Assembly (NCBI GenBank): GCA_021840255.1
Contig: JAKBYX010000012.1
Span: 1,742 to 65,741, forward strand
Direction: 5' to 3'
DNA length: 64,000 bases
From: Nitrospirota bacterium
GTDB taxonomy: Bacteria; Nitrospirota; Thermodesulfovibrionia; Thermodesulfovibrionales; JdFR-88
A model generated the notes under the pieces. That model did no database searches, had not been told where the DNA came from, and was given only the letters and a program-made list of their open reading frames with translations. This document shows, piece by piece, positions 31,149 through 50,577 of the stretch. The stretch's first letter is position 1. Every line of letters starts with the position of its first letter. The translations under genes and the position numbers were made by a program.

Positions 31149-33053
31149 ATGCTTCAGCTTCTATGGCTCATACCTGTTTTGCCGTTTGCGGGTTTTTTGA
31201 TACTGGCGCTTTTTGGCGGGCGGATGCGCAAGTCCGCTGTGGCGGCCGTTGGCGTTGGCTCGGTCGGGCTTGCGGCCCTGGTTTCATTAGTAGTGGCCGC
31301 CGGTTTCCTGTTGTCCGCGCAAAACCCTTCTGCCCGGGTCTACACGCAGTACATCTGGACGTGGATAAATATCGGCGCGTTCAAACCGGGCATCTTTTTG
31401 TATCTCGATGCACTTTCCCTGGTGATGGTGCTTGTAGTGACGGTGGTGGGTTTTTTCATACACCTTTATTCGGCCCAGTTTATGGAAGAGAGCGAGGGCT
31501 ACGGCCGGTTTTTTGCCTACATGAATCTTTTTGTAGGCTCGATGCTGATCCTGGTGCTTTCGGGCAACCTGCTGTTGTTGTACCTTGGATGGGAGGGCGT
31601 GGGCCTCTGCAGTTACCTCCTGATAGGTTTCTGGTACAAGGAGCCGGAAAACGGGTCAGCCGCGATCAAGGCGTTCGTGGTGACGCGCGTTGGCGACACC
31701 GCCCTTGCGATAGGCCTTTTTTTGATCTTTTTGAATTTGGGCTCGCTGGACATACAAACGCTGATGGGAACGGCCGCGCTTAAATGGCGGATCGGGGGAG
31801 AGCTTCCCACGCTGGCGGCCGCGCTCATTCTTGGGGGAGCGGTGGGCAAATCCGCTCAGTTGCCGCTTCAGACCTGGCTGCCGGACGCAATGGCGGGCCC
31901 CACGCCCGTCAGCGCTCTGATACATGCCGCCACGATGGTAACGGCCGGCGTGTATCTTATAGCCAGGACCCATGTGCTTTTCAGCATGGCCCCGAGGGTG
32001 GAGCTTGCCGTTGGCATTATCGGAGCGGCAACGCTTCTTATCTCCTCAATGAGCGCGCTTGTCCAGCACGATATAAAGAGGGTGCTGGCATATTCCACCA
32101 TCAGCCAGATAGGGTACATGTTCCTGGCCCTTGGAGTGGGGGCATGGTCCGCTGCGATCTTCCACCTTGTGACGCACGCCTTTTTCAAAGCGCTTTTGTT
32201 CCTTGGGGCCGGAGCGGTCATAGCGGGATTTGGCGGGGAACATGACATGTTCAAGATGGGGGGAGTCAGGAAGCAGTCGCCTTTTGTCTTCTGGACATTT
32301 TTGGCCGGGGCCTGTTCTCTGTCGGCCCTTCCCCTTGTGACGGCGGGCTTTTACAGCAAGGGCATGATCCTGTTTGGCGCATGGCAGTCCAGGCAGGCGG
32401 GGTTTTGGCTCTGGGCGGCCGGACTGACCGGGGCATTTTTGACCTCGATATATACGTTCAGGATGGTGTTCATCACTTTTTTTGGCGAGGCCAGAACGGC
32501 CATGGCTAAAAAGCCGGACATCCGCGAAGCCGTACCGCTTGTAGTGCTTGCTTTCCTGGCGGTCGTGGGCGGTTTTATCGGCTTGCCCCGTTTTCTTGGG
32601 ATAAGGTCTTTATCGATCACCGGTTTCCTCTCCGCCGTCCTGCCGTCTTCCGCTCAAATGGAGGGGCAAAAAGAAACGGAACTGCTCCTGGAGACGGTCG
32701 CTTCCATTATTTCCCTTGCCGGTATATACGTGGCCTACTTTTTCTGGCTTTCCGCCCCCGAATATTCGCGCGAAATAGCGCAAAGCCGGGCCGGAAAGAC
32801 CATCAGGAGGTTTTTGTTTTCCGGATGGGGATTTGACTGGCTCTACGGGAAACTCTTTGTGGCCCCGTACAAATGGGTGGCAAGGGTCAGCAGGAATGAT
32901 GTCATAGACGTGGCCTACTCGTTCATAGCCGGGGTGAACAGGTTTTTCCATTACGGGCTGAGCATGACGCAGACGGGCAGGGTACGGTTTTATGCCGCGG
33001 CCATTGCTCTGGGGGCCGCTGTCACCATAACCATAGCGGTGCTCGCCAGATGA
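31149..33053 (+). CDS. nuoL: NADH-quinone oxidoreductase subunit L
   Basis: 634 aa antiporter-like subunit (WEGVGLCSYLLIGFW, SAQLPLQTWLPDAMAGPTPVSALIHAATMVTAG). Confidence 0.95.
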   Translation: MLQLLWLIPVLPFAGFLILALFGGRMRKSAVAAVGVGSVGLAALVSLVVAAGFLLSAQNPSARVYTQYIWTWINIGAFKPGIFLYLDALSLVMVLVVTVVGFFIHLYSAQFMEESEGYGRFFAYMNLFVGSMLILVLSGNLLLLYLGWEGVGLCSYLLIGFWYKEPENGSAAIKAFVVTRVGDTALAIGLFLIFLNLGSLDIQTLMGTAALKWRIGGELPTLAAALILGGAVGKSAQLPLQTWLPDAMAGPTPVSALIHAATMVTAGVYLIARTHVLFSMAPRVELAVGIIGAATLLISSMSALVQHDIKRVLAYSTISQIGYMFLALGVGAWSAAIFHLVTHAFFKALLFLGAGAVIAGFGGEHDMFKMGGVRKQSPFVFWTFLAGACSLSALPLVTAGFYSKGMILFGAWQSRQAGFWLWAAGLTGAFLTSIYTFRMVFITFFGEARTAMAKKPDIREAVPLVVLAFLAVVGGFIGLPRFLGIRSLSITGFLSAVLPSSAQMEGQKETELLLETVASIISLAGIYVAYFFWLSAPEYSREIAQSRAGKTIRRFLFSGWGFDWLYGKLFVAPYKWVARVSRNDVIDVAYSFIAGVNRFFHYGLSMTQTGRVRFYAAAIALGAAVTITIAVLAR

Positions 33054-34636
33054 TACTTGCATGGCTCATAATAACGCCTTTTGCGGGTGGCGTCCTTGCC
33101 TGGACGCTTGCAAGGGGGCGGGGTCTTCTGGGAGGGCTCGCCTCAAGATGGGTATCCATGATCGCGCTTGCCATTGATCTGCTGCTGGTAGTGCGCCTCT
33201 GGGCAAATTATTACGGCGCGCTGGGGACGGGCGCGTTTTCCCTTTCCGGGATATCATTGCCTTACGGCAAATGGTTAAAGGAGCTTGCCGTGCCGTGGAT
33301 ACCACAGGCGGGCATATCAATTCATCTTGCGATGGACGGCCTCAGCCTTCTTCTTGTTACCCTTACGGTGGTCCTTGGAATGGTTTCGGTTGCCGCCTCC
33401 TGGAGCGAAATAAAGGACCGGGTTGGTTTTTTTCACTTTAATCTCCTCTGGACGCTCTCCGGTATATTAGGGGTCTTTCTTGCGCTGGACCTTTTTCTTT
33501 TCTATTTCTTCTGGGAGATGATGCTTGTGCCCATGTACTTTCTCATAGCCGTGTGGGGACATGAAAGAAGACTGTACGCCTCGGTGAAATTTTTCATCTT
33601 CACCCAGGTAAGCGGCCTTTTCATGCTGCTGTCCATCCTGGGGCTTTTCTTTGTCCACGGCGCGCAGACAGGGGTTTACACATTCGATTACCTGGGTCTC
33701 CTTGGCACAAGGCTGGCCCCTGACACGGCCTTCTGGCTGATGCTTGGTTTTTTTATTGCCTTTGCCGTGAAGCTTCCGGCCGTGCCTGTCCACAGCTGGT
33801 TGCCGGACGCGCACACGGAGGCGCCGACTGCGGGCAGCGTCATCCTTGCGGGGCTTCTTCTTAAGACCGGGGCTTACGGGCTTCTGCGTTTCGCGGTGCC
33901 TCTATTTCCACAGGCATCGGTGAGTTTTGCGCCCGCCGCCATGGCGCTTGGCGTCATAAGCATCCTTTACGGAGCTGTTTTGGCTTACGGGCAGACGGAT
34001 TTCAAAAGGCTGGTGGCCGACACGAGCATAAGCCATATGGGCTTTGTGCTTTTGGGCATTTACGCCTGGAACGGCATCGCGCTCCAGGGCACGGTGATGC
34101 AGATGCTCTGCCACGGCATAAGCACCGGCATGCTCTTTGTCCTCGCGGGGTCGATACAGGAGCGTATACATACCCGTGACATGCGCAGGATGGGGCGGTT
34201 TTGGGAAAAGGTCCCGGTCATGGGCGGGGTCGGGATGCTCTTTGCGCTTGCCTCGCTGGGCCTTCCGGGGCTGGGGAACTTCGTAGGGGAGTTCCTTGTC
34301 CTTTTGGGGGCGTTCAGGGCCAGCCCGGTTATGGCTGTAATTGCCTCGCTAGGGCTTGTTGTCTCCACCGTATATGCGCTCTGGATGGTGCAGCAGGTCT
34401 TCCACGGACAGCCCCGTGAGGAACATGCCCTGTTGCCGGACTTATACCCCAGGGAAAAGGGCATAGCGGCGGCGATGATAATCCTTATCGTATGGCTTGG
34501 CCTCTATCCCCAACCAGTAATAAACGCGGCAAGGCCCGCGCTTGAGAACCTACAGAAGGTCAGGGCCGCCGTTTTAAGGCAGACGCAGGCGGAAGGCAAT
34601 AATCCGGAAAGAGAGGGCTCAAATGGGCTACGCTGA
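33050..34636 (+). CDS. nuoM: NADH-quinone oxidoreductase subunit M
   Basis: 528 aa antiporter-like subunit (FYFFWEMMLVPMYFLI, HSWLPDAHTEAPTAGSVILAG). ATGA overlap with nuoL. Confidence 0.95.
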   Translation: MILAWLIITPFAGGVLAWTLARGRGLLGGLASRWVSMIALAIDLLLVVRLWANYYGALGTGAFSLSGISLPYGKWLKELAVPWIPQAGISIHLAMDGLSLLLVTLTVVLGMVSVAASWSEIKDRVGFFHFNLLWTLSGILGVFLALDLFLFYFFWEMMLVPMYFLIAVWGHERRLYASVKFFIFTQVSGLFMLLSILGLFFVHGAQTGVYTFDYLGLLGTRLAPDTAFWLMLGFFIAFAVKLPAVPVHSWLPDAHTEAPTAGSVILAGLLLKTGAYGLLRFAVPLFPQASVSFAPAAMALGVISILYGAVLAYGQTDFKRLVADTSISHMGFVLLGIYAWNGIALQGTVMQMLCHGISTGMLFVLAGSIQERIHTRDMRRMGRFWEKVPVMGGVGMLFALASLGLPGLGNFVGEFLVLLGAFRASPVMAVIASLGLVVSTVYALWMVQQVFHGQPREEHALLPDLYPREKGIAAAMIILIVWLGLYPQPVINAARPALENLQKVRAAVLRQTQAEGNNPEREGSNGLR

Positions 34637-36134
34637 CCTGTTGGCGTCGCTGCCGCTGGTTCTTGCCGCGGCATCTTCGGTGGCCGTCATGCTGATCATT
34701 GCCTTTTACAGGAACCATGGGCTTGCCGCCCTGGCAACTCTCGCGGGGCTTGCGGTCTCCTTTGCCTCAATTGTTGTGGCCGCCCCTTACGCCCCGAGAA
34801 ACGTCACGGGCCTTCTGGTGATCGACGGCTATGCGCTTTTTTTCATCGGGTTGATATTTGCAGGCACCTTTGCCGCGGCGATGCTGGCCCACGGTTACCT
34901 GGAGAAAACACTCCGGGGGGAACGGGAGGAGTTTTACCTGCTCCTGCTGCTTGCGGCAACCGGGGCGGCTGTTCTTGCGGCAAGCGCGCATTTTGCCTCT
35001 TTTTTCCTTGGCCTTGAGACCCTTAGCGTATCGCTGTACGCCCTTATTTCTTATCCCAAAGGCAGTGAAAGAGCGGTGGAAGCCGGGGTGAAATACCTGG
35101 TGCTGGCCGCGGTGTCCTCGGCGTTTCTGCTGTTTGGCATGGCGCTGGTATATGCCAGGATGGGGACAATGCAATTCTCGGGCATTGCGTCAATGGCCCT
35201 GGGGACATATATGGGGGACCCGGTTTTTCTTGGCGCGCTTGCGCTTATTGCGGCCGGGGTGGGATTCAAGCTCGCGGTGGCCCCGTTCCACATGTGGACG
35301 CCGGATGTGTACGAGGGCGCGCCTCCTCCGGTCGCAGCCTTTGTGGCCACGGTCTCCAAGGGGGCCATGTTCGCGCTTTTTCTCAGGTATTTCGCCAGGG
35401 TGGACATACACCAGAGCCGCTCGCTCGTGCTGGCCGTTGCCGTCATATCCATTGGCTCCATGTTCATAGGAAACCTGCTGGCCCTGCTGCAAAATAACGT
35501 AAAGCGCGTTCTCGCATACTCATCCATTGCCCATCTGGGTTACCTGCTTGTGGCCTTTCTAGCGGCCGGGGCGCTCAGAGTTACGGCATCCGAGTACTAC
35601 CTGGTCTCCTATTTCATCACCATGCTTGGCGCGTTCGGGGTGGTTACCGTGTTGGCCGGAAAAGAGGCGGGGGAGATGGAAGACATCAGGGACTACAGGG
35701 GGCTTTTCGCCAGCCATCCTGTTATTGCCGTGGTTTTTTCGGCGATGCTGTTTTCCTTGGCGGGCATACCGCTTACCGCCGGGTTCATCGGAAAATTCTA
35801 TGTGATAGCCGCGGGGGCGGGCTCCGCTCTCTGGACGCTGCTTATCGCCCTTGCCATAAACAGCGCGATAGGGCTCTTTTACTATGTGAGGATCATCGTG
35901 AGCATGTATTCAAATGTAGAGGCGGGGTATCCAGGTGAAGAGGCGGCGCATACGGGAAGCGGAGAGCATGCCGTTTTTGGCGCCGGACAAATGGGCGGGG
36001 CACCTCCGGTGATAGCCATCCCCATTGGCGGCGGGCTTGCCCTGGCGGGGCTCACCCTTGGGCTGGTGTGGTTCGGGGTCTATCCGCCTACGCTTCTTTC
36101 CATAATCCAGAAAACCATATCCAGTTTGATGTGA
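34623..36134 (+). CDS. nuoN: NADH-quinone oxidoreductase subunit N
   Basis: 503 aa antiporter-like subunit (FHMWTPDVYEGAPPPVAAFVA). Overlaps nuoM by 14 nt. The C-terminus is about 70 aa longer than I expect for NuoN. Confidence 0.9.
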   Translation: MGYADLLASLPLVLAAASSVAVMLIIAFYRNHGLAALATLAGLAVSFASIVVAAPYAPRNVTGLLVIDGYALFFIGLIFAGTFAAAMLAHGYLEKTLRGEREEFYLLLLLAATGAAVLAASAHFASFFLGLETLSVSLYALISYPKGSERAVEAGVKYLVLAAVSSAFLLFGMALVYARMGTMQFSGIASMALGTYMGDPVFLGALALIAAGVGFKLAVAPFHMWTPDVYEGAPPPVAAFVATVSKGAMFALFLRYFARVDIHQSRSLVLAVAVISIGSMFIGNLLALLQNNVKRVLAYSSIAHLGYLLVAFLAAGALRVTASEYYLVSYFITMLGAFGVVTVLAGKEAGEMEDIRDYRGLFASHPVIAVVFSAMLFSLAGIPLTAGFIGKFYVIAAGAGSALWTLLIALAINSAIGLFYYVRIIVSMYSNVEAGYPGEEAAHTGSGEHAVFGAGQMGGAPPVIAIPIGGGLALAGLTLGLVWFGVYPPTLLSIIQKTISSLM

Positions 36135-37392: not shown

Positions 37393-37599
37393 TTGGCAAA
37401 ACGCGCAGGGATGTATAAGTCTGAGAAAAGAAAAAAAGAGATGATCAAGCAGAAAAAGCAGGAACAAAAGAGGCAAAAGCGGCTCGAAAAGGGATCGCGC
37501 CCGGAAGGACAGCCCGAGGAACAGCTTGAGGGACAGGAACCAGGAGGGGAGGCCGAAAACAGCGGGGACTCCACCGGAATGAATGACCCACAGGTTTGA
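37393..37599 (+). CDS. small hypothetical protein with Lys/Arg-rich N-half and acidic C-half
   Basis: 68 aa from the TTG at 37393, or 62 aa from the ATG at 37411. It starts 4 nt after the rpsU stop. No family recognised, and the low-complexity composition makes the call uncertain. Confidence 0.4.
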   Translation: MAKRAGMYKSEKRKKEMIKQKKQEQKRQKRLEKGSRPEGQPEEQLEGQEPGGEAENSGDSTGMNDPQV

Positions 37600-37860
37600 A
37601 GGCTGCATATTCTGAGGACGGGATATTCATTCCGATGATGCCTGAATAGGGCGCTCCCGAAAATAAAAAACCTCCCCCCCCCCCGAGTGTGCAGGAGCAG
37701 CCGGAACCGGCAGGGTGCTGAAAAATTGAAGTCCGGCAAGCAGCAACTGCCGGCTAAAAAGACTAAAAACCTGCCGGCTGTCATCCCTGCCGCTCCTATT
37801 CCCTTAGGTTCATTTTTTTTTGCCCTGCGGCCCCGCAAAACAAAAACCCCCCAAACGTCC

Positions 37861-37866
37861 TATAAT
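37861..37866 (+). promoter_or_regulatory. perfect TATAAT -10 box upstream of the 1512-aa gene
   Basis: TATAAT lies 51 nt upstream of the ATG at 37917. No good -35 element was found, and the region is A-rich. Confidence 0.3.
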
Positions 37867-37916: not shown

Positions 37917-40900
37917 ATGGCCGGACAGGCTGGAAAAAACATGATATGCAGTCTGGATTATCTTGTGGGCACCCTGGCCACGGCTTACAAGGGCGTGATC
38001 ACCTCACTGGTGGTGAAGGATTTCTGCATCTGCCAGGAGGATGGGTCCGCTATCCTTAAAGGCGTCATCCTTTCCATGCCGCCCGGCGGCTATCAGGCCT
38101 CCCTGATAAGAGAAGGGGGGGAGCTTGCCCGCTCCCCCATAACGGAAAATGGCGGCTTTGAGATGCGGGCCGGTGAAGGGCCCGTCATGGAGGCCAAAGA
38201 CCTGCAGATCGACATCCTTCAAAACGGCAGGCATATCGGTACCTTCCTGCTCAAAAGAGAAAAATCCGGTGTTTTTTATACCCCGGCAGCCGAGCTTTCC
38301 CAGGAGGTTAAGGATGTGGATTTCAAGCTCCTCACCCTTCCGCTCAGGGAGAAGCCGGGGCTTCAGCGCAAGGCCGAAGATGTGATATATAAAATCCTTT
38401 CCGCAAAAAAGGACTGGCGTAAATTTTCAGATGAGCTTCATGGATTTGCGACAGACCTCTTCTGGGGAGAAAGGGAGGTCTTTTACCTGGGCTTTGGTAT
38501 CCTGGTAAAATTTTCTTCCCTTGCGCTTGAAAAAACAGGGCTAGGCCAGACGGCGGGAAAACCAGCCCAAAACTTCCTCGATCTGGTAGGGCTTCCACTT
38601 TCAAGGGAGACCTCTGCGGACAAGCTGCGCAATCCTGCGCTTCAATGGTTGAACGCCTTGGCTCTGGGAGAGGCCCGCACGGACCTTTCCGGCAGGGCGG
38701 GGCAGGCTGTAAAGGTATTCTCCATGATAAATGAAAAGGTGCCGGAAGCGGACATCAGGCCCGCTTTTTCAGCGCTTCTTTCCTCCCTGCGCCGCAGGGT
38801 TGAAGATGCCCCGGTCTTTTCTGAAAACGCCCTGGAGGACATAAAAGGATTCATTCCGCCCGGGGCTTTCGGGGTAATTGAAAAGCGGGGCAGCAGAGGG
38901 CGTGATGGCTTCCTCGCCTTGATGGAAGAAGCCCGCGGCCTGGCTGAGAAAGGCCGGGTTGAAGAATCCCTGCTGAAAATGGACGGGGCGAAGGCGGATC
39001 TCGAATTATTCCTTGACGGTGGGGAGCTTATAAGGAGTTTTTTTGATATAACCAGGAGACATCTTTCCGTGGAAAGCGCCCCCGCGTTCACGGAGGCATT
39101 GTTTGAACTCCTGGATTTCCAGGCGAAGGCCGCAGACGGGGGTAAAGTCAACAAAGACCTCATATCAGGCGCGGCCGAATTCATGCAAAGGCTCATAGCG
39201 GCGGGCCGGGCCGGCCTATGCGCGGACCTTCTTATAAGGGCGGGGAAATCCGGCAAGGAAAGAGGCTTTGAAAATGAAATGGTCCTCAACAAGGATATTG
39301 CCGCCCTCATCCTGGGCTCCGGCGATAACGGGCTTGTCTCTCTTTACCGCGAACTTTTAAAGGGGATACTGGTGCCGTCACCGGGGATACGCGGCTATTC
39401 CCAGGATACCTGGGCGGAAATTGCAAATCCTCTCCATCTGGATATCCTTTCGCGTTTTCTGGACGTCCTTTCCGTTTCGGGCGAAGGCCTGGAGGACGTA
39501 AAGGCGCACCTCATTTGCAATCTCCATTTAAGCGGGGTTTTCATCCCCGACGACAGGCTTTTCCAGCGGCGCGTCTCCGGCTACCTCAATTCTTCGGCCA
39601 TGCGCGGGGGAAAAAAATTCCTGCTTAACTATATGCTTTTAAAAAAGCTCCCTGTTTATTTCAGCGAGATAGGGGCGGCAAGCCGGATAAGGGACTATAC
39701 AACCCAGGTGGACTCCTGGGGGAATGACTCGGTGCTCTATTTTTTGAGAAAACAGGTCCACGTTAACGCAAGCAATCTTAATATACGCCTGACGGAAGGG
39801 ATCATAAAGGCATGGGCAGACAACGACCCGGGCCTTCTTGAGTCGCTTGTGCCCGCTGGCGTCTTCCGGAATTTCAATAAGGCTCTGCTCCAGGTCTATC
39901 ACCTGGCGATAAGACCTTTTTTTGAGGCACTGGGTGTTCTTGATGGGGCAAGGGAAGACGGAGACAAGAATAAAAAGATCCTGTTTGGCAAACTCCTTGA
40001 GATCCACGAGGAGCTTCTGAAAGGGGAGATAGAAAAGATAAAAGCCCCCGAAGAGATACGCTCAAAGGTCTTTTTGCTTTGCCGGATATACCAGGAGATA
40101 GTGAAAAAATATTCCCTGCCTTATAGCGGCCCTTTCGGAGGGGGTCCTTCCGTTGAAGGGCAGGGTCTGTATTCCGCGATAGGGGAATGCCTGCAAAAAA
40201 TGAGGGCGCTTAAAGAAACGGTTCTCTCGCCGGCAAAGACAGAAGCAACAGAGAACCTGTATTTCAAAAGGCATATAGCTTTTGGCATCCCTTCGGTGCT
40301 TGGCACGTATCATGAGCAGAAATTCGATGCCCTGGGGGATTTTTTAAGGATAGGGGAAAGGGCGCGAGTGTTGATGGAGGCGGCCGTCACGGAAGTTTCT
40401 TCGGGCGGGAAAAGACAAAAAGCACGGAAGGGCAGCGAAAAGAGGGAAGGGCCGGAAGAGATCGCCTGCTGGACAGCTGCTCTTGGGCAGATAAACAGCG
40501 TCCTCGCGCTTCAAGGCATCCGGAATTTCCAGATCGAAGAGCTTTCAGGGATATTCAGGACAAACAGACTTTTTGTCAGTCAGACCCTGGATATGCTCCG
40601 GATGTGGCAGAAGGAGTTGAAATGGGCGGTGGAATCCTTCGGCAGGGATTTCCTTGCCCCGCTGGGCAATGTCATTAAGGCTTTCCCTCAGGATGATCTA
40701 CCCGATTATCTTGCAAACCTGGACCCCGATGATGTGAATTTCGTGGACAAGGCGGCGGATATCATCATCAGGGACATGATGGCGGGCCTTCCGGGCTTTA
40801 CCGAGACCGACAGGCTTATAGACGCCCTGGCGGGCAGGTTGTCGTCGCATCTTGAGAGCGAGGGAGATTCTGCCTTCAATCTCAATGTGCCTGAGGAAGC

Positions 40901-42455
40901 GCCGGATTTCTTTGAGTTGGACGGGCTTGGAGATGACGACGCGATGAGGCTTTCCCCGTTTCTTGGCGGCAAGGCCAAAAATCTCGTTTATCTTAAAAAC
41001 GGGGGGTTTGACGTGCCGCCGGGGGCTGTATTTTCTTCCAGGCACACGGAAGATTATATGGGCTATACGGAAAGCGAAGCTTTCACCGAGGCGCTTAAAA
41101 AGGCGGTCCGTAAAATAGAGGACAAAACGGGGAAGATCTTTGGCGGGGAGGAAAACCCGCTTTTCCTTTCGGTAAGAAGCGGCTCCTATATTTCGATGCC
41201 CGGCATCCTTACCTCCATCCTTTATTGCGGCATGAACTCCGTGGCAATAAAGGGTTTCATCAGGGAAACCGGCAACCCGTGGCTTGCCTGGGATTCATAC
41301 AGGAGGTTTCTTGAACACTATGGGAGGTCGGTGCTGGGGCTGGACCCAAAAATCTTCGATGACATAAAAGCGTCTTTTGCAAAAAACAGCGGCGCTTCAT
41401 TACCGGACAGGATGGGGTTGGAGGAGCTGGGCGAGGGGCAGGTAAGGGGCATTGCCCAGGCATACCTTGAGACGTTATCCCGCGCGGGCCATTCCGTCCC
41501 CGATGATGTTTATGAGCAGCTCAGGAATTCCGCAAAAGCGGTCTACGCGTCATGGCATGGTGAAAGGTCCTCCCAGTTTGCCAGGTTCACGGGCATGTCC
41601 CGCCGCTGGGGCACGTCAGTAACCCTTATGCAGATGATATACGGCAATCAGCCGGGGGCGGGGGCGTCAGTTTTTTTTACGAGGGACCCCGCCACCATGG
41701 AAAGGCGCATATACGGCGAGATAAGGGAGATAGCCACGGGTGACGACCTTGTGTACGGGGCCCGCACGAACAGGCCGGTCTCAAAAAAACAGAAAGAACT
41801 GTTCGGCGCAGAAGGTGGCGGGGAAAATATGAGCCTCGAAGAAAAAGACCCGGCGCTTTTCGGGATGCTTGAGGACCTGGCGCGGAGGATCGAGGATGCC
41901 ATGGGCGGGCTTCCCCAGGAAGTGGAGACCACGTACTGCAAAACTGACGGGCAGAGAAAGGTCTATGTACTCCAGGCAAGGCGCATGGAGTTTTTTGACT
42001 CCGGGTTTATCCCGCGTTTTGAGGAAATATGCATGATGGAACCCAGGGTGATAGGTAAGGGCATAGGGGTGCACGGGGGGGCGCTTAGCGGGGTTGCCTC
42101 ATTTTCCTTCTCCACTGAAGCCATAAGAGAGCTGGGCCGCAAAACCGGTTTGCCTGTTATTATCCTGCGCCATTCGGCCAGCACGAATGACGTTTCTCTC
42201 ATGGCGGACATAGGCGGCATAATAACGGCTGCCGGCGGCGCCACATCCCATGCCTCCGTCCTTGCCCAGAAGTTTGGCCTCACTGCGATCGTCGGCTGCA
42301 AGGACCTGAGTTTCGAGGCCTCCCGTGAAGGCACGCCCTACGCCCGCATAGGCAATTCCATTATTTCCGAGGGGGCCCCCATAAGCATCGACGGGGCCAC
42401 CGGGCTCATATTTTCCGGCACATGCCTGCACACCTCGAATAGCCGGCAGCGCTGA
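37917..42455 (+). CDS. large orphan protein: ~1000-aa unrecognised N-terminal region + PPDK-type ATP-grasp and phosphohistidine (PEP-utilizer mobile) domains, no PEP/pyruvate domain
   Basis: 1512 aa. From residue ~1012 it aligns by eye to the N-terminal two-thirds of pyruvate phosphate dikinase: FLGGKAKNL, NPLFLSVRSGSYISMPG, TGNPWLAWDSYRRF, WGTSVTLMQMIYGN, VFFTRDPATMERRIYGE, GDDLVYGARTNRP, VYVLQARR and GGATSHASVLAQKFGLTAIVGC (His-1445, nt 42249-42251). The ORF ends about 65 aa after that His. Confidence 0.85.
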   Translation: MAGQAGKNMICSLDYLVGTLATAYKGVITSLVVKDFCICQEDGSAILKGVILSMPPGGYQASLIREGGELARSPITENGGFEMRAGEGPVMEAKDLQIDILQNGRHIGTFLLKREKSGVFYTPAAELSQEVKDVDFKLLTLPLREKPGLQRKAEDVIYKILSAKKDWRKFSDELHGFATDLFWGEREVFYLGFGILVKFSSLALEKTGLGQTAGKPAQNFLDLVGLPLSRETSADKLRNPALQWLNALALGEARTDLSGRAGQAVKVFSMINEKVPEADIRPAFSALLSSLRRRVEDAPVFSENALEDIKGFIPPGAFGVIEKRGSRGRDGFLALMEEARGLAEKGRVEESLLKMDGAKADLELFLDGGELIRSFFDITRRHLSVESAPAFTEALFELLDFQAKAADGGKVNKDLISGAAEFMQRLIAAGRAGLCADLLIRAGKSGKERGFENEMVLNKDIAALILGSGDNGLVSLYRELLKGILVPSPGIRGYSQDTWAEIANPLHLDILSRFLDVLSVSGEGLEDVKAHLICNLHLSGVFIPDDRLFQRRVSGYLNSSAMRGGKKFLLNYMLLKKLPVYFSEIGAASRIRDYTTQVDSWGNDSVLYFLRKQVHVNASNLNIRLTEGIIKAWADNDPGLLESLVPAGVFRNFNKALLQVYHLAIRPFFEALGVLDGAREDGDKNKKILFGKLLEIHEELLKGEIEKIKAPEEIRSKVFLLCRIYQEIVKKYSLPYSGPFGGGPSVEGQGLYSAIGECLQKMRALKETVLSPAKTEATENLYFKRHIAFGIPSVLGTYHEQKFDALGDFLRIGERARVLMEAAVTEVSSGGKRQKARKGSEKREGPEEIACWTAALGQINSVLALQGIRNFQIEELSGIFRTNRLFVSQTLDMLRMWQKELKWAVESFGRDFLAPLGNVIKAFPQDDLPDYLANLDPDDVNFVDKAADIIIRDMMAGLPGFTETDRLIDALAGRLSSHLESEGDSAFNLNVPEEAPDFFELDGLGDDDAMRLSPFLGGKAKNLVYLKNGGFDVPPGAVFSSRHTEDYMGYTESEAFTEALKKAVRKIEDKTGKIFGGEENPLFLSVRSGSYISMPGILTSILYCGMNSVAIKGFIRETGNPWLAWDSYRRFLEHYGRSVLGLDPKIFDDIKASFAKNSGASLPDRMGLEELGEGQVRGIAQAYLETLSRAGHSVPDDVYEQLRNSAKAVYASWHGERSSQFARFTGMSRRWGTSVTLMQMIYGNQPGAGASVFFTRDPATMERRIYGEIREIATGDDLVYGARTNRPVSKKQKELFGAEGGGENMSLEEKDPALFGMLEDLARRIEDAMGGLPQEVETTYCKTDGQRKVYVLQARRMEFFDSGFIPRFEEICMMEPRVIGKGIGVHGGALSGVASFSFSTEAIRELGRKTGLPVIILRHSASTNDVSLMADIGGIITAAGGATSHASVLAQKFGLTAIVGCKDLSFEASREGTPYARIGNSIISEGAPISIDGATGLIFSGTCLHTSNSRQR

Positions 42456-42622: not shown

Positions 42623-43384
42623 TTGATTTTTTTGGCGAAAATTGATTCGCAAAGGATGAGGACCCGGTTGCCAAGCGCCCTGTTATGCGCCTGCCTGGCG
42701 GCTCTGCTGGTATTGTCCTCTGGGGGTAACGCTCATGCCAGGGTTTTGGTCATCAACACCTTCGATATTTATCCATACTCCACCCCTCACGGCACCGGTT
42801 CTCTGGACCTGGTGATCAAGGAGGCTTTCAGGCGCATAGGACAAAAGGTGAAGATAGTATGGCTGCCGTCCGCAAGGGCCCTCATCAATGCCGACTCGGG
42901 CATCGATGACGGAGACTTTGCCCGCATGGCCGGCATTGAAAAAAAATTCCATAATCTGGTCCGGGTACCGGGGAAGCTCTGCAAGTTCGAGTTTGCCCCT
43001 TTTGCGAAATCCCCTGCCATAAAGATAAGCGGTTGGAAGAGCCTGAACGGATATAACGTCGGAATACCCCGGGGGGCCCAGATACTTGAGAAAAAAACTT
43101 CGGGCCTGCGTTCGCTCACGGAGGTGAACGACCAGAACGCCCTCTTTAGCATGCTCCTGAACGGACGTTTTGATGTGATAATTTACGAAAGCGTGCAAGG
43201 CAGGGGGCTTATAAAGGAATGCGGTTTGCCCGGCGTCCGGCAGGTGGGCCCCGTCCTTTGGAAATGCTGGGCGTATTTGTATATGAACCGCCGCTATTCC
43301 GCTTTGGTCCCGCGTCTGGCTCATGCCATCAGTCAGATGAAAAGAGATGGCACTTTCAACCGTATAATGGGCTCATCAAGGTGA
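42623..43384 (+). CDS. periplasmic solute-binding protein (family 3 / amino-acid-binding-like), no transporter partner
   Basis: 253 aa from the TTG at 42623 (AGGAG SD 10 nt upstream); the ATG at 42656 is an alternative. Signal peptide ...LVLSSGGNAHA. The overall pattern resembles SBP_bac_3 proteins that accompany sensor kinases. Confidence 0.65.
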   Translation: MIFLAKIDSQRMRTRLPSALLCACLAALLVLSSGGNAHARVLVINTFDIYPYSTPHGTGSLDLVIKEAFRRIGQKVKIVWLPSARALINADSGIDDGDFARMAGIEKKFHNLVRVPGKLCKFEFAPFAKSPAIKISGWKSLNGYNVGIPRGAQILEKKTSGLRSLTEVNDQNALFSMLLNGRFDVIIYESVQGRGLIKECGLPGVRQVGPVLWKCWAYLYMNRRYSALVPRLAHAISQMKRDGTFNRIMGSSR

Positions 43385-43397
43385 CGCGAAGGCGATA

Positions 43398-45581
43398 ATG
43401 ATCAGAAGGAATTCTCAAAAAGGCATCGGGCATTATCTGTGCAAACGGGTCCTTTTCTTCAGCCTTTTCCTGGTGGCATTCTTCACCCTGTTCCAGGCCG
43501 GGCTGGATTACCGCAACCGTATGGCCACCATCCCCAAAACCATCGGCAGGATCAACGTGGAGCAACTTGAGGAATCCCTATGGGAAGTAGACAGCCAGGC
43601 CCTGCAACTGCAGGCCGAGGGGATAGTCCATTTCCCCTATATAAGTTACGCCTCGATCTCGGACCAGAACAGCGTTATGGCCAGGGCCGGGGAAAAGAAA
43701 GACAAAGGGGTCCTGACCAGGACGATACCTCTTACACGCATGTACAACGGAAGGGAAGTTGCGATCGGCAGCCTTTATCTGCAGGCGGACACAGGGGAGG
43801 TCTTTCATGATGTCCTTAATGATATCGCGCTTATATTCATATTCCAGTCCGCGATGGTGTCTATTGTGGCTCTGCTCATCTTCGGACTCTTCGAGCTGAC
43901 TGTGACCCGCCATCTTTCCTCGGCCGCCGGATATTTCCGCGCCTTTGACGCGGGTGTCAATTTGCCTCTGAAACTGGAAAAGACAGGGCGCAGGGACGAA
44001 CTGGATACCCTGGTGGACGCCTTCAATGATATGCGCCAGAAACTCGATTCCGCGTACCGGAAGCAGCTGAGCGCGGAAAAGAAGTTCCGGGACCTGCTGG
44101 AGACCGTCAGGCTTGCCGCGGTCATGCTGGACCGAAACGGCAATATCACCTTCTGCAACGATTATTTACTAAACCTCACCGGATGGAGCAGGGAAGAGGC
44201 CATTGGCAACAGCTGGGTTGACATGTTCGTGCCGGATGAGGCCAGGGAACGGGTCAAAACCGTTTTTAAGACCGTTCTGGGTTCCGAAGGGCCCACGCAT
44301 TATGAAAACCCCATAATAACGCGCGAAGGAAAAATAAGGCATATCGTATGGGACAATTCCGTTTTAAGGGACCATAACGGGGATGTCCTGGGTACCGCAA
44401 GCATAGGCAGCGACTTTACGGAGCACAGGAGACTGGAAGACCAGTTGCGCCAGGCGCAGAAGATGGAAGCGGTGGGCCAACTGGCTGGAGGCGTTGCCCA
44501 TGATTTCAACAATATACTTTCAGCGATCGTGGGTTATGCGCATCTTACCCTGATGAAGATGGGCGAAGACAGCCCGCTGAAAGACAATCTGGAGCAGATA
44601 CTAAAGGCCTCGGAGAGGGCTGCCACTCTCACGCAGAGCCTTCTTTCGTTCAGCAGAAAGCAGGCCATGAGCCCCAAGCCGGTTGACTTGAACGGGATCA
44701 TGAAAGGTCTCGATAAATTGCTGGCGAGGCTGATCAGGGAGGATATCGAGATCAGGATGAGGTGCCCCATGGAGGGTCTTGTGATCTTTGCCGACAAAGG
44801 ACAGATCGAGCAGATGATGATAAACCTGATCACTAACGCCAGGGACGCCATGCCCAAAGGCGGCCGCATTATGGTGGATACGGGCGAGCTGCTCATGGAC
44901 GAGAGCTTTATAGAGGCGCATGGGTTCGGCAAGGAGGGGAAATACGCCTTCATCTATGTTTCCGATACCGGCCATGGGATGGATGAGCAGACGAGGCGGA
45001 GGATGTTCGAGCCGTTCTTTACAACCAAGGAGCAGGGGAAAGGCACGGGCCTCGGGCTTTCACTGGTTTACGGGGTGATAAAACAGCACAGAGGCTATAT
45101 AGATATCTACAGTGAACCGGGAATGGGCGCGACATTCAAGATCTATCTGCCGCTGCTGGAGGGGCGCGCAGCGGAGGAAGAGCAGGGAAAGGTCCCGCCT
45201 GCGGCGATGGAAGAAGGTTCCGGGACGATACTCGTCGCCGAGGACGACCCGCAGATAAGGCGGCTCAACGCCACCGTGCTGCGTGAAAATGGTTACACCG
45301 TTGTCGAAGCGGTCGACGGAGAGGACGCCGTACGCAAATTCTCCGAATACCCAGGCGGCGTTCAGCTATTGGTCACGGACTGCATCATGCCCAGGAAGAA
45401 CGGAAAAGAGGCGTACGATGAGATCCGCAGGAAGGACCCCTCCATAAAGGCCATTTTTCTAAGCGGCTACGCCGAGGACGTCATCAGCAAGGAAGGTCTG
45501 CTGGTGGAGGGTATAAACTTCATCGTCAAGCCGGTTACGCCCTCCATTCTGTTAAAGAAAGTAAAGGAACTGCTCTCTTAG
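43398..45581 (+). CDS. hybrid sensor histidine kinase (2 TM periplasmic sensor-HAMP-PAS-HisKA-HATPase-REC)
   Basis: 727 aa. H-box [18 protein letters not shown]-box [10 protein letters not shown]-boxes DTGHGMD / GTGLGLS, and a C-terminal receiver (ILVAEDDP ... [13 protein letters not shown] ... LSGY). Confidence 0.9.
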
Positions 45582-45851: not shown

Positions 45852-45944
45852 ATGCATATTTTCTACTGGATAGGCGGCATTGTGACGGCGGGCCTTTTGG
45901 TCTACCTGGTGGCCGCGTTACTGAAACCGGAGATATTTTCATGA
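45852..45944 (+). CDS. kdpF: K+-transporting ATPase subunit F
   Basis: 30 aa, MHIFYWIGGIVTAGLLVYLVAALLKPEIFS, with the KdpF-like signature (LxxYLxxALLxPExF). GGGAGAG SD. The stop overlaps the kdpA ATG. Confidence 0.8.
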   Translation: MHIFYWIGGIVTAGLLVYLVAALLKPEIFS

Positions 45945-47737
45945 GCGGAAACGACGTGCTGCAGATCGTGATCTATTTTACCGTCCTGGTTTTGCTTGCA
46001 AAACCGCTTGGCATATTCATGGCCAGGGTCTATGAGGGCCAGCCGGTTTTTCTAGGCCGCGTTCTGGGCCCTTTCGAACGTCTTTTTTACCGCCTCTGCG
46101 GCATCCAGCCGGAAGAGGAGATGGGCTGGAAGCAATACGCGCTGGCGGTGCTCCTGTTCAGCCTGTCCGGGATGTTTGCCGTTTATGCGCTTCAGCGCTT
46201 CCAAGGGGCGCTCTTTTTGAACCCGCAGAAATTTCCGGCCGTGACGCCGGGCCTTTCTTTCAACACAGCCGTAAGCTTCGCTACCAATACCAACTGGCAG
46301 AACTATGGCGGGGAGTCCACCCTGAGCTATCTAACGCAGATGGCCGGGCTCGCGGTGCAAAACTTCGTATCGGCCGCAGCCGGCATGGCAGTGCTCGTGG
46401 CCCTTATCCGCGGGTTCAAGAGACATGCCGCAAATACCATAGGCAACTTCTGGGTGGACATGACACGGGGCGTTTTGTATATCCTCCTGCCACTGTCCGT
46501 TCTCTATTCATTTCTCCTGGTTTCCCAGGGTGTTGTGCAGAGCTTTGACAAATACAAGACAGTCGCTTTGACCCAGGCGGTAACTTATGAAACCCCGAAG
46601 CTCGATGCCCTGGGCAACCCTGTGAAAGACGCAAAGGGCAATCCCGTTATGATGGAGTCTGAAGTGAGGCAGCAGCAGATACCCCTTGGCCCGGCTGCAT
46701 CCCAGGTCGCCATAAAGCAACTGGGCACGAATGGGGGAGGATTTTTCAATACAAATTCGGCCCATCCGCTTGAAGACCCCACGCCTTTTTCAAATTTCCT
46801 TGAGTGCCTGGCGATACTGCTGATACCGGCCGCGCTCTGTCTGACCTTCGGGGAGATGGTGGGCGACAGAAGGCAGGGCTGGGCCTTGCTTATTACCATG
46901 ATGCTGGTGCTTGCGCCCCTTACGGTTCTTGGCACCTGGAGCGAGCAGGGCGGCAACCCGCATTTTGCCTCCATGGGGATAGACCAGGCGGCTGGCGCAC
47001 TTCAGCCCGGCGGCAATATGGAAGGTAAGGAGGTACGGAACGGCATAGTAAGTTCCACGGTCTGGGCCACCTGGACAACCGCGGCCTCGAACGGTTCGGT
47101 CAACTCCATGCACGATTCCTATACCCCCCTTGGCGGCATGATACCGCTGGTGCTCATACAGTTGGGAGAGGTAATTTTCGGGGGCGTTGGCTCCGGGCTT
47201 TACGGCATGCTCATATTCGCCATACTCACCGTGTTCATAGCGGGGCTCATGGTGGGGCGCACACCGGAATACCTGGGCAAGAAGATAGAGATATTCGAGA
47301 TGAAGATGGCCGCCTTTATGGTGCTCATCGTAAATGCGCTCATTAAAATTGGAACGGCCCTGGGCGTTTCTACGAAAGCCGGGCTGGCAGGCATCTCCAA
47401 CCCAGGCCCTCACGGTTTTTCCGAAGTGCTGTATGCCTTTTCCTCCTTCGCGGACAACAACGGGAGCGCCTTTGCGGGCCTTAATGGAAATTCGCTTTTC
47501 TACAACACTATTGGCGGGATGATCATGTTCATTGGACGGTTCTGGGTTATCATCCCGGTGCTGGCCATCGCGGGCTCTCTGGCCAAAAAGAAGCATGTCC
47601 CCGCGGGGTTGGGGACGCTTCCCACCCATACGCCCCTGTTCGTCGTGTTTCTCATAGGGGTCATAGTGGTAGTAGGCGCGCTTACGTTCATGCCCAGCCT
47701 TGCGCTTGGGCCGATCGCGGAAATGTTTACGCACTGA
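45941..47737 (+). CDS. kdpA: K+-transporting ATPase subunit A
   Basis: 598 aa, polytopic, with KdpA blocks (NTNWQNYGGE, LGTNGGGFFNTNSAHP, NNGSAFAGL). Confidence 0.95.
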   Translation: MSGNDVLQIVIYFTVLVLLAKPLGIFMARVYEGQPVFLGRVLGPFERLFYRLCGIQPEEEMGWKQYALAVLLFSLSGMFAVYALQRFQGALFLNPQKFPAVTPGLSFNTAVSFATNTNWQNYGGESTLSYLTQMAGLAVQNFVSAAAGMAVLVALIRGFKRHAANTIGNFWVDMTRGVLYILLPLSVLYSFLLVSQGVVQSFDKYKTVALTQAVTYETPKLDALGNPVKDAKGNPVMMESEVRQQQIPLGPAASQVAIKQLGTNGGGFFNTNSAHPLEDPTPFSNFLECLAILLIPAALCLTFGEMVGDRRQGWALLITMMLVLAPLTVLGTWSEQGGNPHFASMGIDQAAGALQPGGNMEGKEVRNGIVSSTVWATWTTAASNGSVNSMHDSYTPLGGMIPLVLIQLGEVIFGGVGSGLYGMLIFAILTVFIAGLMVGRTPEYLGKKIEIFEMKMAAFMVLIVNALIKIGTALGVSTKAGLAGISNPGPHGFSEVLYAFSSFADNNGSAFAGLNGNSLFYNTIGGMIMFIGRFWVIIPVLAIAGSLAKKKHVPAGLGTLPTHTPLFVVFLIGVIVVVGALTFMPSLALGPIAEMFTH

Positions 47738-47746
47738 TTTTAAGGC

Positions 47747-47774
47747 AAAAAATAAAAAATAAAAAATAAAAAAT
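47747..47774 (+). repeat. (AAAAAAT)x4 tandem heptamer in the kdpA-kdpB spacer
   Basis: Four exact AAAAAAT units followed by TTTT, within a 61-nt spacer. Confidence 0.9.
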
Positions 47775-47798
47775 TTTTAAAAACAGGATCGGGAGATC

Positions 47799-49904
47799 AT
47801 GGGCAGGAAAAAAGAAAGAAGCAAAAGTAAAAGTAAAAAATCCCTTTTTGAGTCAAGGATAATACGGCGGGCGCTCTGGGATTCGGTGAAAAAGCTTAAT
47901 CCCGTTTACCAGATAAAAAACCCTGTCATGTTCGTGGTGGAGGCGGGCAGCGTCCTTACCACCGCGCTTTTTCTTCACTCCGTCATCACCGGAAGGGGCG
48001 AGGCCTCCCCTGGTTTCATATTCCAGATAGCGGTCTGGTTATGGATAACGGTGCTCTTTGCCAACTTCGCGGAATCCATGGCGGAGGGGCGCGGCAAGGC
48101 CCAGGCCGACGCCCTCAGGAAGACCAGGCAGGAGGTCATGGCCAAGCGCATGACCAAGCCGCAGAGGGATACACCCAGGGATTCCAATGTCACGCAGGTC
48201 CCCTCGTCGCAGCTTAAGAAAGGGGACGTTGTCCTGGTGGAGGCGGGGGACATCATCCCGATGGACGGAGAGGTTGTAGAGGGAGTCGCTTCTGTGAACG
48301 AAAGCGCCATAACGGGCGAAAGCGCGCCCGTCATAAGAGAGTCCGGTGGGGACAGGAGCGCGGTCACAGGCGGGACGATGGTGCTTTCGGACTGGCTTGT
48401 CGTAAGGATCACCTCGAACCCCGGCGAGACGTTCCTGGACAGGATGATAAGCATGGTGGAGGGAGCGAAGCGCCAGAAGACACCAAACGAGATAGCCCTG
48501 GACATTCTGCTGGCCGGCCTCACCATTATTTTTCTGCTGGTGACCGCCACACTGCTTCCGTTTTCGATATTCAGCGTGAAGGCCGCTGGGCACGGCAGCC
48601 CCGTTACCATGACGGTGCTTGTGTCGCTTCTGGTTTGCCTGATACCTACCACGATAGGCGGTTTGCTTTCCGCCATAGGCATTGCCGGCATGGACAGGAT
48701 GATACAGGCAAACGTCATAGCAATGTCCGGCCGAGCCGTCGAAGCAGCGGGCGATGTGGACGTCCTTCTTCTGGACAAGACCGGCACAATAACCCTGGGA
48801 GACCGCCAGGCCACCATGTTCATCCCGGCCCCGGGCGTGGACGCCCATGTCCTTGCCGACGCCGCCCAGCTTTCATCGCTTGCCGACGAGACACCGGAGG
48901 GCAGGAGCATCGTTGTCCTGGCAAAGGAAAAATACAGTCTGAGGGAACGTGACATTCATGCCCTTGGCGCGCATTTCGTGGAGTTCAGCGCTCAAACCAG
49001 AATGAGCGGGGTGAACATGGACGGCAGGGAGATCCGCAAGGGCGCTTCCGACGCGGTGGAAAAATATATTCAGAAAGAGGGCGGGACTTTCCCGCAGGAA
49101 GTGCGCCATATAGTGGACGACATTGCCAGGCAGGGGGCCACGCCGCTTGTTGTGGCCGAAGGCAAAAAGGTGCTTGGCGTTATCCGTCTGAACGATATAG
49201 TAAAAGGCGGCATAAAGGAGCGGTTCGCCGAGATGAGGCAGATGGGCATAAAGACCATCATGATAACCGGCGACAACCCGCTTACCGCCGCGGCTGTGGC
49301 GGCGGAGGCCGGGGTGGACGACTTCTTGGCGCAGGCCACTCCGGAAACCAAGCTGAAACTCATACGTGAGCACCAGGCCGGCGGAAGGCTCGTGGCGATG
49401 ACCGGCGACGGCACCAATGACGCACCCGCGCTGGCCCAGGCGGATGTGGCGGTCGCCATGAACACGGGCACCCAGGCCGCAAAGGAAGCAGGCAACCTGG
49501 TGGACCTGGACTCCAATCCCACAAAGCTCATAGAGATCGTGGAGATCGGCAAACAGCTCCTTATGACCAGGGGAACTCTCACCACCTTCAGCATAGCCAA
49601 CGATGTGGCAAAGTATTTCGCCATCCTGCCGGCGGCGTTCATCTCCATCTACCCGGCCCTTGGAGCGCTCAACATAATGCACCTTGCCACCCCGCAGAGC
49701 GCCGTTTTGTCCGCGGTCATATTCAACGCGCTGATAATCATTTTTTTGATCCCGCTTGCGCTGCGCGGCGTTAAGTACAAACCCCTTGGCGCGCAGGTCG
49801 TCCTGCGCAATAACGCCCTTATATACGGCGTCGGTGGCCTCGCCGTCCCGTTCCTAGGCATCAAGCTCATAGACATGCTCATAACGGCGCTTCACATAGT
49901 CTGA
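47799..49904 (+). CDS. kdpB: K+-transporting P-type ATPase subunit B
   Basis: 701 aa with the DKTGTIT phosphorylation motif, TGDN and [17 protein letters not shown]. Confidence 0.95.
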
Positions 49905-49925
49905 AAGGAAGGGGAAAAACAAAAA

Positions 49926-50510: not shown

Positions 50511-50577
50511 AAACAGGGAAAATTTAATAGAACAGGCCCTATAATGAAAGATGACGGTTTGAGAAGGGAAATATAGT

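Follow-up and report, generated by a model that had tools for sequence, protein, structure and literature searches.

What does a protein do that carries the catalytic engine of pyruvate phosphate dikinase (PPDK) but has lost the domain with which that enzyme binds phosphoenolpyruvate (PEP) and pyruvate? The question is raised by a gene in a 64,000-nucleotide stretch of contig JAKBYX010000012.1 (positions 1,742 to 65,741, forward strand; assembly GCA_021840255.1) from a Nitrospirota bacterium, referred to here as the window. The gene encodes 1512 residues, and the window contains neither a paralogue of this protein nor a canonical PPDK. An earlier note, made from the DNA alone, had described the product as an orphan in which two PPDK modules follow some 1000 residues of unrecognisable sequence, and had proposed ATP-driven phosphotransfer to an acceptor held by the N-terminal region. 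The analysis reported here places the protein in a large family and makes it likely that the engine works together with a second active site in a conserved helical core domain. The features of the gene, in coordinates of the window, are as follows.

37917..42455, + strand: whole dikinase-like gene, 1512 residues (uninterrupted open reading frame, ORF, with an ATG start)
37938..38255, + strand: N-terminal beta-rich domain, residues 8-113 (AlphaFold2 secondary structure, conservation)
38325..39368, + strand: alpha-solenoid spacer, residues 137-484 (poor sequence conservation, Leu/Ala-rich, generic HEAT/ARM-like fold matches)
39369..40916, + strand: conserved helical core, residues 485-1000 (modelled as 455-1000), proposed acceptor or second active-site domain (alignment, AlphaFold2)
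40266..40316, + strand: most conserved core motif KRHIAFGIPSVLGTYHE, K784-E800 (alignment; beta-hairpin predicted by AlphaFold2)
40947..41996, + strand: PPDK-type ATP-grasp nucleotide-binding domain, residues ~1011-1360 (K1019, R1087, E1335, E1337, Q1353, R1355)
42045..42419, + strand: phospho-histidine swivel (PEP-utilizers mobile) domain, residues ~1377-1501 (PF00391; alignment to the isolated PPDK central domain 2fm4)
42249..42251, + strand: codon of the catalytic His1445, in GGATSHASV (PPDK alignment)

The presence of the two PPDK modules, ATP-grasp and phospho-His with His1445, is borne out by three comparisons. The sole Pfam match over the full protein is the PEP-utilizers mobile domain (PF00391, residues 1413-1496, E 1.8e-15). 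The NCBIfam model for PPDK (TIGR01828) matches residues 1011-1355 with its positions 13-334 of 865 at E 4.6e-83, and the score of 279.6 bits is far under the cut-off of 843.45 bits because the remaining model positions, other than the His region, are unmatched. In a phmmer search against PDB sequences, residues ~1013-1502 align to residues 15-508 of Clostridium symbiosum PPDK (1kbl) at E 2.9e-62. The signatures of the nucleotide site are present in full (GGK with K1019, VRSG with R1087, the SMPG loop, PQEVE with E1335 and E1337, and LQARR with Q1353 and R1355/1356), as is the GGATSH signature of the carrier domain (T1443, S1444, H1445), and these residues are either invariant in 26 sequences or at least 90% conserved across 57. 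The alignment thereby accounts for every ATP-grasp catalytic residue, and the equivalents of PPDK Lys22, Arg92, Glu323, Gln335 and Arg337 are K1019, R1087, E1337 (with E1335), Q1353 and R1355. The C-terminal PEP/pyruvate TIM barrel is absent, as the earlier note had stated, since the ORF stops 67 residues past His1445 and neither Pfam nor NCBIfam gives a PEP-utilizers_C match. Models of related enzymes score lower than the PPDK model: NF004531, which describes short PPDK proteins of the VadK type, gives 203.6 bits (E 5.1e-60; cut-off 456), the PEP synthase model TIGR01418 gives 40.3 bits over its positions 292-433 only (cut-off 739.75), and the rifampicin phosphotransferase model NF041857 gives 22.5 bits at the His motif only (cut-off 999). 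Homology shows the predicted machinery for the first half-reaction of PPDK to be intact.

The protein has turned out not to be an orphan, since it has at least 142 homologues, mostly in Nitrospirota, and belongs to a wider family of hundreds. The search that returned the 142 or more matches covered 5.8 billion proteins, and the best 120 of the matches cover 89-100% of the protein (nearly all 97-100%) at 43-99% identity and are 1303-1546 residues long. Named close homologues are nearly all from Nitrospirota, comprising Nitrospiraceae (as labelled), Thermodesulfovibrionales, Dissulfurispiraceae and Ca. Sulfobium. A scan of GTDB species yielded 91 loci, all from metagenome-assembled genomes and some on Mb-scale contigs, and at least 484 loci that encode a family member came from a scan of metagenomes. 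With a profile built on the N-terminal 1005 residues, 329 matches were obtained among 1.84 billion cluster representatives. The second tier of these matches (E 1e-70 to 1e-40) consists of proteins of ~1350-1540 residues that begin matching at the solenoid or the core, with profile coverage from ~130-450 to ~945, and whose C-terminus likewise consists of PPDK_N and PEP-utilizers domains; their sources are Syntrophobacteraceae, Ca. Delongbacteria, Tenuifilaceae/Bacteroidales and Myxococcota. A further profile search added Desulfobulbaceae, Ca. Electrothrix, Desulfobacterales, Thermodesulfobacteria, Acidobacteriota, Cloacimonadota, Firmicutes and others, and Ignavibacteria are also among the hosts of the wider family. 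The family is best described as a new architecture within the His-swivel class, consisting of a variable N-terminal module, a solenoid, the helical core, the ATP-grasp domain and the His domain. Source databases mostly name its members 'pyruvate, phosphate dikinase' or 'phosphoenolpyruvate synthase', and a search of the literature found neither a described member nor a pyrophosphate/AMP-linked alternative to phosphoglycerate kinase (PGK); it did turn up VadK.

Two loci appear to encode the protein in two parts (L167:8001-12237 and L168), with a 950-residue core protein that overlaps a 466-residue ORF carrying the PPDK_N and PEP-utilizers domains. Both lie on long contigs with many fragmented genes, and the split is most likely due to frameshift errors, not to a natural two-component organisation. 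A natural split into a core protein and a short dikinase was considered and rejected, the matches of ~900-1000 residues being fragments or frameshifts in error-prone assemblies.

The statement that the ~1000 residues before the engine belong to no recognisable family has held. Residues 1 to ~1000 have no match in Pfam, NCBIfam or PADLOC (the last giving no defence-system match), and a Pfam search at E<=10 with the N-terminal regions of seven members gave nothing beyond isolated chance-level matches, which were discarded (RsdA_SigD_bd, KIP1 and, in one member at 0.038, PEP-utilisers_N). The N-terminal profile matched only de novo repeat proteins among PDB sequences (E>0.06), and Foldseek with the whole 1010-residue N-terminal model found only generic HEAT/ARM-like solenoid scaffolds with TM scores of 0.1-0.16; none of these four resources (Pfam, NCBIfam, PDB, Foldseek) links the region to a characterised family. 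No motif had been recognised in the same region, but it is not featureless: it is predicted to fold into three structured modules, and it holds long motifs that are invariant. It had also been called rich in Leu, Glu, Ala and Lys; there is a modest bias of this kind, and the sequence is clearly Leu/Ala-rich only in the solenoid (136-484). An AlphaFold2 model built with 26 homologues has a mean predicted local distance difference test score (pLDDT) of 79 and a predicted template modelling score (pTM) of 0.66, and divides the region into the beta-rich domain (residues 8-113), the alpha-solenoid (137-484) and a mainly helical part (499-985). Conservation peaks in the beta-domain, within Nitrospirota only, and at residues ~477-966.

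Residues 485-1000 are the most conserved part of the protein outside the dikinase engine when phyla are compared. Over 72 sequences from several phyla, 16 residues of this core are invariant (H507, D545, P579, R592, D599, R611, K612, H615, K731, Y732, K784, H786, S793, G796, R952 and D965), most of them charged (Arg, Lys, His or Asp), while overall identity between subfamilies is ~25%. They sit in motifs that include DDRLFQR, FLRKQVHVNAS and YFKRHIAFGIPSVLGTYHE, the last of which is a predicted beta-hairpin. The motifs of the family (DxxLFQR, FLRKQxH and KRHIAxGIPSxxGxYxE in the core, followed by the ATP-grasp domain and TSH) are all found in the 1512-residue protein and are invariant or nearly so over the same 72 sequences. 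With this alignment, AlphaFold2 models residues 455-1000 at a pLDDT of 91.9 and a pTM of 0.91. Foldseek with the core model found no match in PDB (best E 0.26, TM ~0.1) or in BFVD (best E 0.047), and the core sequence has no match to a PDB chain by sequence profile and none in Pfam. The core is a candidate new fold, where 'new' is relative to solved structures as judged by Foldseek on a predicted model. Its invariant Arg, Lys, His and Asp residues would suit a small polyanionic substrate together with Mg2+, and such a charged pattern is one to be expected in a catalytic pocket sooner than on a docking surface. The proposal that an acceptor site lies in the N-terminal region is therefore supported by a segment that is conserved across phyla, holds 16 invariant residues and has a confidently predicted fold with no known neighbour.

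The remainder of the N-terminal region varies between lineages. Residues that are invariant in the beta-domain within Nitrospirota include C11, D14, Y15, G18 and T19 and, toward its end, G104, H106, G108 and K113. Profile coverage indicates that the beta-domain is absent from the sister subfamily, in two representatives of which an N-terminal hemerythrin domain (PF01814) takes its place (P0226, residues 18-132; P0202, residues 19-128); this suggests sensing of the O2, iron or NO type in those clades. The beta-domain and the solenoid are probably lineage-variable additions that confer regulation or the docking of partners.

Evidence on the acceptor comes from gene context. The neighbours of 160 family loci were clustered, and one partner recurs across phyla, glyceraldehyde-3-phosphate dehydrogenase (GAPDH; Gp_dh_N plus Gp_dh_C). 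In what follows X denotes the dikinase-like gene and gap2 a divergent GAPDH paralogue, and the adjacency counts 12/13, 30/42 and 3/37 refer to intact genes with at least 1.1 kb of flank. Among loci from Bacteroidota, Cloacimonadota and Aminicenantes, a canonical gap of ~335 residues is immediately upstream of X in 9/13, often with a 4-nt overlap, a gap2 of 416-424 residues lies 2-30 nt downstream of X in 12/14, and one or both adjoin X in 12/13. In a Desulfobacterota-like set from metagenomes, a GAPDH gene is upstream of X in 31/47 loci, downstream in 15/47 and on either side in 30/42. Both sets belong to the sister subfamily. In the second of them X also occurs inside the classical glycolytic operon, as gap-X-gap2-pgk-tpi-secG (L099, L100, L103, L125, L129) or gap-X-pgk-tpi-secG (L153, L154). 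The linkage is reciprocal, in that a search starting from gap2 found an X of ~1365 residues 22-38 nt upstream of all three diverse homologues examined (Bacteroidales, Ignavibacteria and Acidobacteria). It is likely that the wider family is functionally tied to GAPDH; for the Nitrospirota subfamily found in the window the chances of such a tie are close to evenly balanced, tilting slightly against it.

The gap2 products (L069:8245-9495, L083:9278-10522, L078:5617-6882 and L169-L172:7001-8254) are 416-450 residues long with several insertions, score 296 bits against TIGR01534, below its cut-off of 367, and are abundant in Bacteroidales, Cloacimonadota, Ignavibacteria and Acidobacteriota. Alignment shows that the catalytic Cys (SAASCTTT) and His (TVHAAT) are kept, as are the Thr and Arg residues that we take to form both phosphate sites; gap2 is accordingly expected to form or consume an acyl phosphate. 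Where canonical GAPDH has the Asp that presumably selects for NAD, gap2 has Gly-Arg, a hint that NADP may be used. A gap2-like gene of 450 residues also lies near the split locus in L167, on the opposite strand. In one Desulfobacterota-like clade (L099, L109, L123, L125, L129, L138, L142, L144, L148, L153), the gap-X operon directly follows the nitrogen phosphotransferase system (PTS) genes rpoN-(c18)-ptsN-rapZ-EIIA(Man)-GNAT. This may be mere synteny, and it is recorded since X carries a phospho-His domain of the PTS Enzyme I type.

The reading favoured here, held tentatively and at somewhat less than an even chance, is that of a His-swivel dikinase whose second active site is provided by the core domain and which acts at the GAPDH node, possibly on the pair 3-phosphoglycerate (3-PG) and 1,3-bisphosphoglycerate (1,3-BPG). 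By homology, the ATP-grasp domain (residues ~1011-1360) would bind Mg-ATP and phosphorylate or pyrophosphorylate His1445, with release of AMP and phosphate (Pi) or pyrophosphate (PPi). The His domain would then swing to a second site, which in PPDK is the PEP/pyruvate TIM barrel. Here that site would be formed by the ~500-residue helical core (485-1000), proposed because it is the only conserved candidate, with R592, R611, K612, H615, K731, K784, H786, R952, D545, D599 and D965 binding the polyanion and Mg2+. Gene context in the wider family suggests that the acceptor or donor would belong to the GAPDH node of glycolysis and gluconeogenesis. The most economical chemistry would be a reversible transfer between phospho-His and the carboxylate of 3-PG, interconverting 3-PG and 1,3-BPG, for which succinyl-CoA synthetase provides a precedent in the transfer of phosphate from phospho-His to a carboxylate. 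The outcome would be a bypass of PGK coupled to the interconversion of ATP and AMP (plus PPi or Pi) and working with a dedicated GAPDH paralogue, and a dedicated, possibly NADP-linked gap2 would fit such a bypass in the gluconeogenic direction. From standard free energies, ATP + Pi + 3-PG -> AMP + PPi + 1,3-BPG lies at about +4 kJ/mol; the reaction would therefore be reversible and could yield ATP from AMP and PPi in glycolysis. The water-dikinase version, at about -15 kJ/mol by our own calculation, would be an irreversible gluconeogenic push. The Pi/PPi version is mildly favoured because the engine is much closer to that of PPDK than to that of PEP synthase (E 4.6e-83 vs 1e-12). As the specific substrate pair, 3-PG and 1,3-BPG are unlikely, and it is about as unlikely that the family as a whole consists of 3-PG dikinases, of the phosphate or water type, that use a phospho-His route and a new-fold domain and are paired with a probably NADP-preferring GAPDH paralogue.

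Several observations weigh against this assignment. The same gap-X operons also encode PGK, and the genomes thus call for no substitute. No gap, pgk, tpi or glgA gene is present anywhere in the window, and gap is next door in only 3/37 assessable intact loci of the window's subfamily; four loci of this subfamily with gap directly downstream are L029, L031, L033 and L066. The protein in the window may be a paralogue with a diverged role, because members of the gap-operon subfamily (P0349, P0416) occur in some Nitrospirota too. The ~480 extra N-terminal residues, which comprise the solenoid and sensor-like domains that vary, resemble those of a scaffold or regulator more than those of a simple metabolic enzyme. 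Finally, the sole characterised PPDK without a third domain, VadK (Rv1127c) of Mycobacterium tuberculosis, is regulatory (PMC13400623). For this Nitrospirota protein in particular, the role is one that we infer.

The last of these points leads to the chief alternative, which is rather unlikely in our estimation: a regulatory autokinase like VadK, whose engine would only autophosphorylate. The phospho-state would be gated by variable N-terminal sensor modules (the beta-domain or hemerythrin) and would control binding of, or phosphotransfer to, partner proteins, with the solenoid and core as a docking platform; for the sister subfamily, GAPDH or some other lower-glycolysis enzyme would fill the partner's role. 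VadK autophosphorylates His422 in an ATP- and Mg-dependent manner and binds PrpC and PrpD, the products of neighbouring genes, to tune flux through the methylcitrate cycle (PMC13400623). The match to NF004531 at E 5.1e-60 agrees with such a role, as do the swapping of N-terminal modules between clades (hemerythrin in P0226 and P0202), which is typical of signalling proteins, the resemblance of the alpha-solenoid to scaffold-like proteins only, and the co-occurrence of PGK in the operons, which leaves no missing enzyme to fill. The NF004531 score, however, is far under its cut-off and under the PPDK score, so the 1512-residue protein is not an orthologue of VadK, and the tight, often overlapping spacing of gap-X-gap2 resembles that of consecutive enzymes or subunits. 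Sixteen invariant and mostly charged core residues, held across phyla at ~25% identity, suit a catalytic pocket better than a docking platform, and it is because of this deep invariance that the catalytic reading is ranked above regulatory autophosphorylation.

Other acceptors are less probable still. The core could bind pyruvate or PEP in place of the TIM barrel, in which case the family would be a non-homologous PEP synthase or PPDK and the database names would be right by convergence. Those names come only via the shared engine; placement in operons of glycolysis and gluconeogenesis is compatible with this function, and the invariant residues, some basic and some acidic, might serve as ligands of PEP and Mg2+. 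We nevertheless regard it as improbable, given that the defining PEP/pyruvate domain is absent, that the reciprocal linkage is to GAPDH paralogues and not to genes for enolase, pyruvate kinase or pyruvate:ferredoxin oxidoreductase, and that nothing suggests why a universally conserved TIM-barrel site should have been exchanged for another. Plant glucan-water dikinase (GWD) couples this engine to polymer-binding domains, and by analogy the N-terminal region might bind glycogen, alpha-glucan or another polymer that the engine would phosphorylate. In 22 metagenome loci GlgA (glycogen/starch synthase, GT5) is indeed encoded two genes upstream of X (GlgA-gap-X), but all of these loci are closely related and belong to one clade, gap always lies between GlgA and X, and neither the Bacteroidota nor the Nitrospirota set shows the link; with no carbohydrate-binding module detected by Pfam and an all-helical core unlike the folds of such modules, a polymer dikinase is highly improbable. 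An artefact (a chimeric assembly, two genes fused by a frameshift, or a pseudogene in decay) could be suspected from the split or fragmented database homologues (L167, L168), which come from error-prone assemblies. Yet uninterrupted ORFs of 1450-1550 residues with 99% query coverage recur in more than 100 independent assemblies, some of them on contigs of Mb scale, the whole length of the protein is strongly conserved and the AlphaFold2 models are confident; the full-length architecture is no product of assembly, and the conservation data effectively refute this explanation, leaving it a negligible probability.

The DNA around the gene in the window contributes little to these arguments. The 317-nt spacer and the 167-nt downstream gap given earlier are correct, the former measured from a small K/E-rich ORF that ends at 37599; the distance from rpsU is 528 nt. 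The TATAAT box that had been reported is also present, and a promoter scan found no paired -35 for it.

37861..37866, + strand: TATAAT hexamer, possible -10 box, 51 nt 5' of the ATG (promoter scan)

In the flanks of the gene, Rfam detects no riboswitch or leader RNA, and counts of promoter and terminator sites equal the expectation from shuffled sequence. An alternative start at Met9 (37941) is possible because a 99%-identical homologue (P0001) has 1504 residues. The small ORF (37393-37599, + strand) has a TTG start, encodes 68 Lys/Glu-rich residues, begins 5 nt past the rpsU stop and may be a real gene or a remnant. A poly-C run of ~13 nt lies in the spacer at 37670-37686.

Upstream of the gene are nuoL/M/N (31149-36134), cspA, an RRM protein gene and rpsU. 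Directly downstream are a 253-residue ORF (42623-43384, + strand), previously called a binding protein and without a Pfam match at E<=1e-3, and a hybrid kinase gene (43398-45581, + strand; CHASE5-HAMP-PAS-HisKA-HATPase-REC), followed further downstream by a complete kdpA-kdpB-kdpC-kdpD potassium-uptake cluster (45941-53319). The RRM-rpsU and binding protein-hybrid kinase genes had been put forward as a functional context, and they are conserved in close relatives only: the pair resembling a solute-binding protein and a hybrid kinase recurs downstream only in L007, L008 and L058 (at least 69% identity), and nuoLMN in a few more. Other Nitrospirota homologues adjoin unrelated genes for haem biosynthesis, purine, radical-SAM or helicase functions. 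The neighbourhood in the window is local synteny only and is not functionally informative. On a 3.08-Mb Nitrospirota contig, an IS605 OrfB/TnpB (Cas12f-like) gene (L001:6335-7567) lies directly upstream of a homologue and breaks up the arrangement of hem gene, X and gap found in L004.

The GAPDH-PGK step of lower glycolysis is viewed as enzymatically settled. In sulfate reducers, relatives of cable bacteria, syntrophs, Bacteroidales, Cloacimonadota and others, a widespread and conserved protein of 1400-1500 residues is inserted between gap and pgk. Its position there implies that the GAPDH node of energy-limited anaerobes has a new reaction or, failing that, a new layer of control. If the family does consist of 3-PG dikinases, these organisms would have a bypass of PGK analogous to the bypass of pyruvate kinase by PPDK and PEP synthase. 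Metabolic reconstructions take over the annotation of the family as PPDK or PEP synthase, and with the PEP/pyruvate domain missing this is almost certainly an error. The core, for its part, is a candidate new acceptor module for the His-swivel class of enzymes.

Among known systems, the closest likeness is to PPDK (EC 2.7.9.1; Clostridium symbiosum, 1kbl), with which the protein shares the ATP-grasp and swivelling His domains in the same order and all of the ATP/Mg and TSH residues. It differs in its length of 1512 residues, in having ~1000 unrelated residues before the engine and no C-terminal TIM barrel, and in its sub-threshold TIGR01828 score. VadK and the other NF004531 proteins, found in Actinomycetes, likewise have lost the PEP/pyruvate domain and kept the catalytic His, autophosphorylation being only predicted for the 1512-residue protein, and the VadK gene lies near those of the metabolic enzymes it acts on (prpC, prpD) (PMC13400623). 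VadK differs in consisting of the engine only, at ~490 residues (NF004531 proteins have ~490-534), so that the present protein is about three times longer, and in its prp context and other taxa, the present family being linked to gap. PEP synthase, rifampicin phosphotransferase (Rph), PigC/RedH/HapC and the HpeHI-type kinases share the modular combination of ATP-grasp domain, phospho-His carrier and dedicated acceptor domain. The same modular logic is found in GWD and phenylphosphate synthase. Families of the PEP synthase, Rph and PigC type differ in that their matches to the 1512-residue protein are weak and limited to the His domain (E 1e-12 to 0.1) and their acceptor domains are unrelated, and the domain order of Rph and GWD is unlike that of the present protein. 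PGK catalyses the interconversion of 3-PG and 1,3-BPG, and with it, as with succinyl-CoA synthetase, the analogy is chemical only, no similarity of sequence or fold having been detected.

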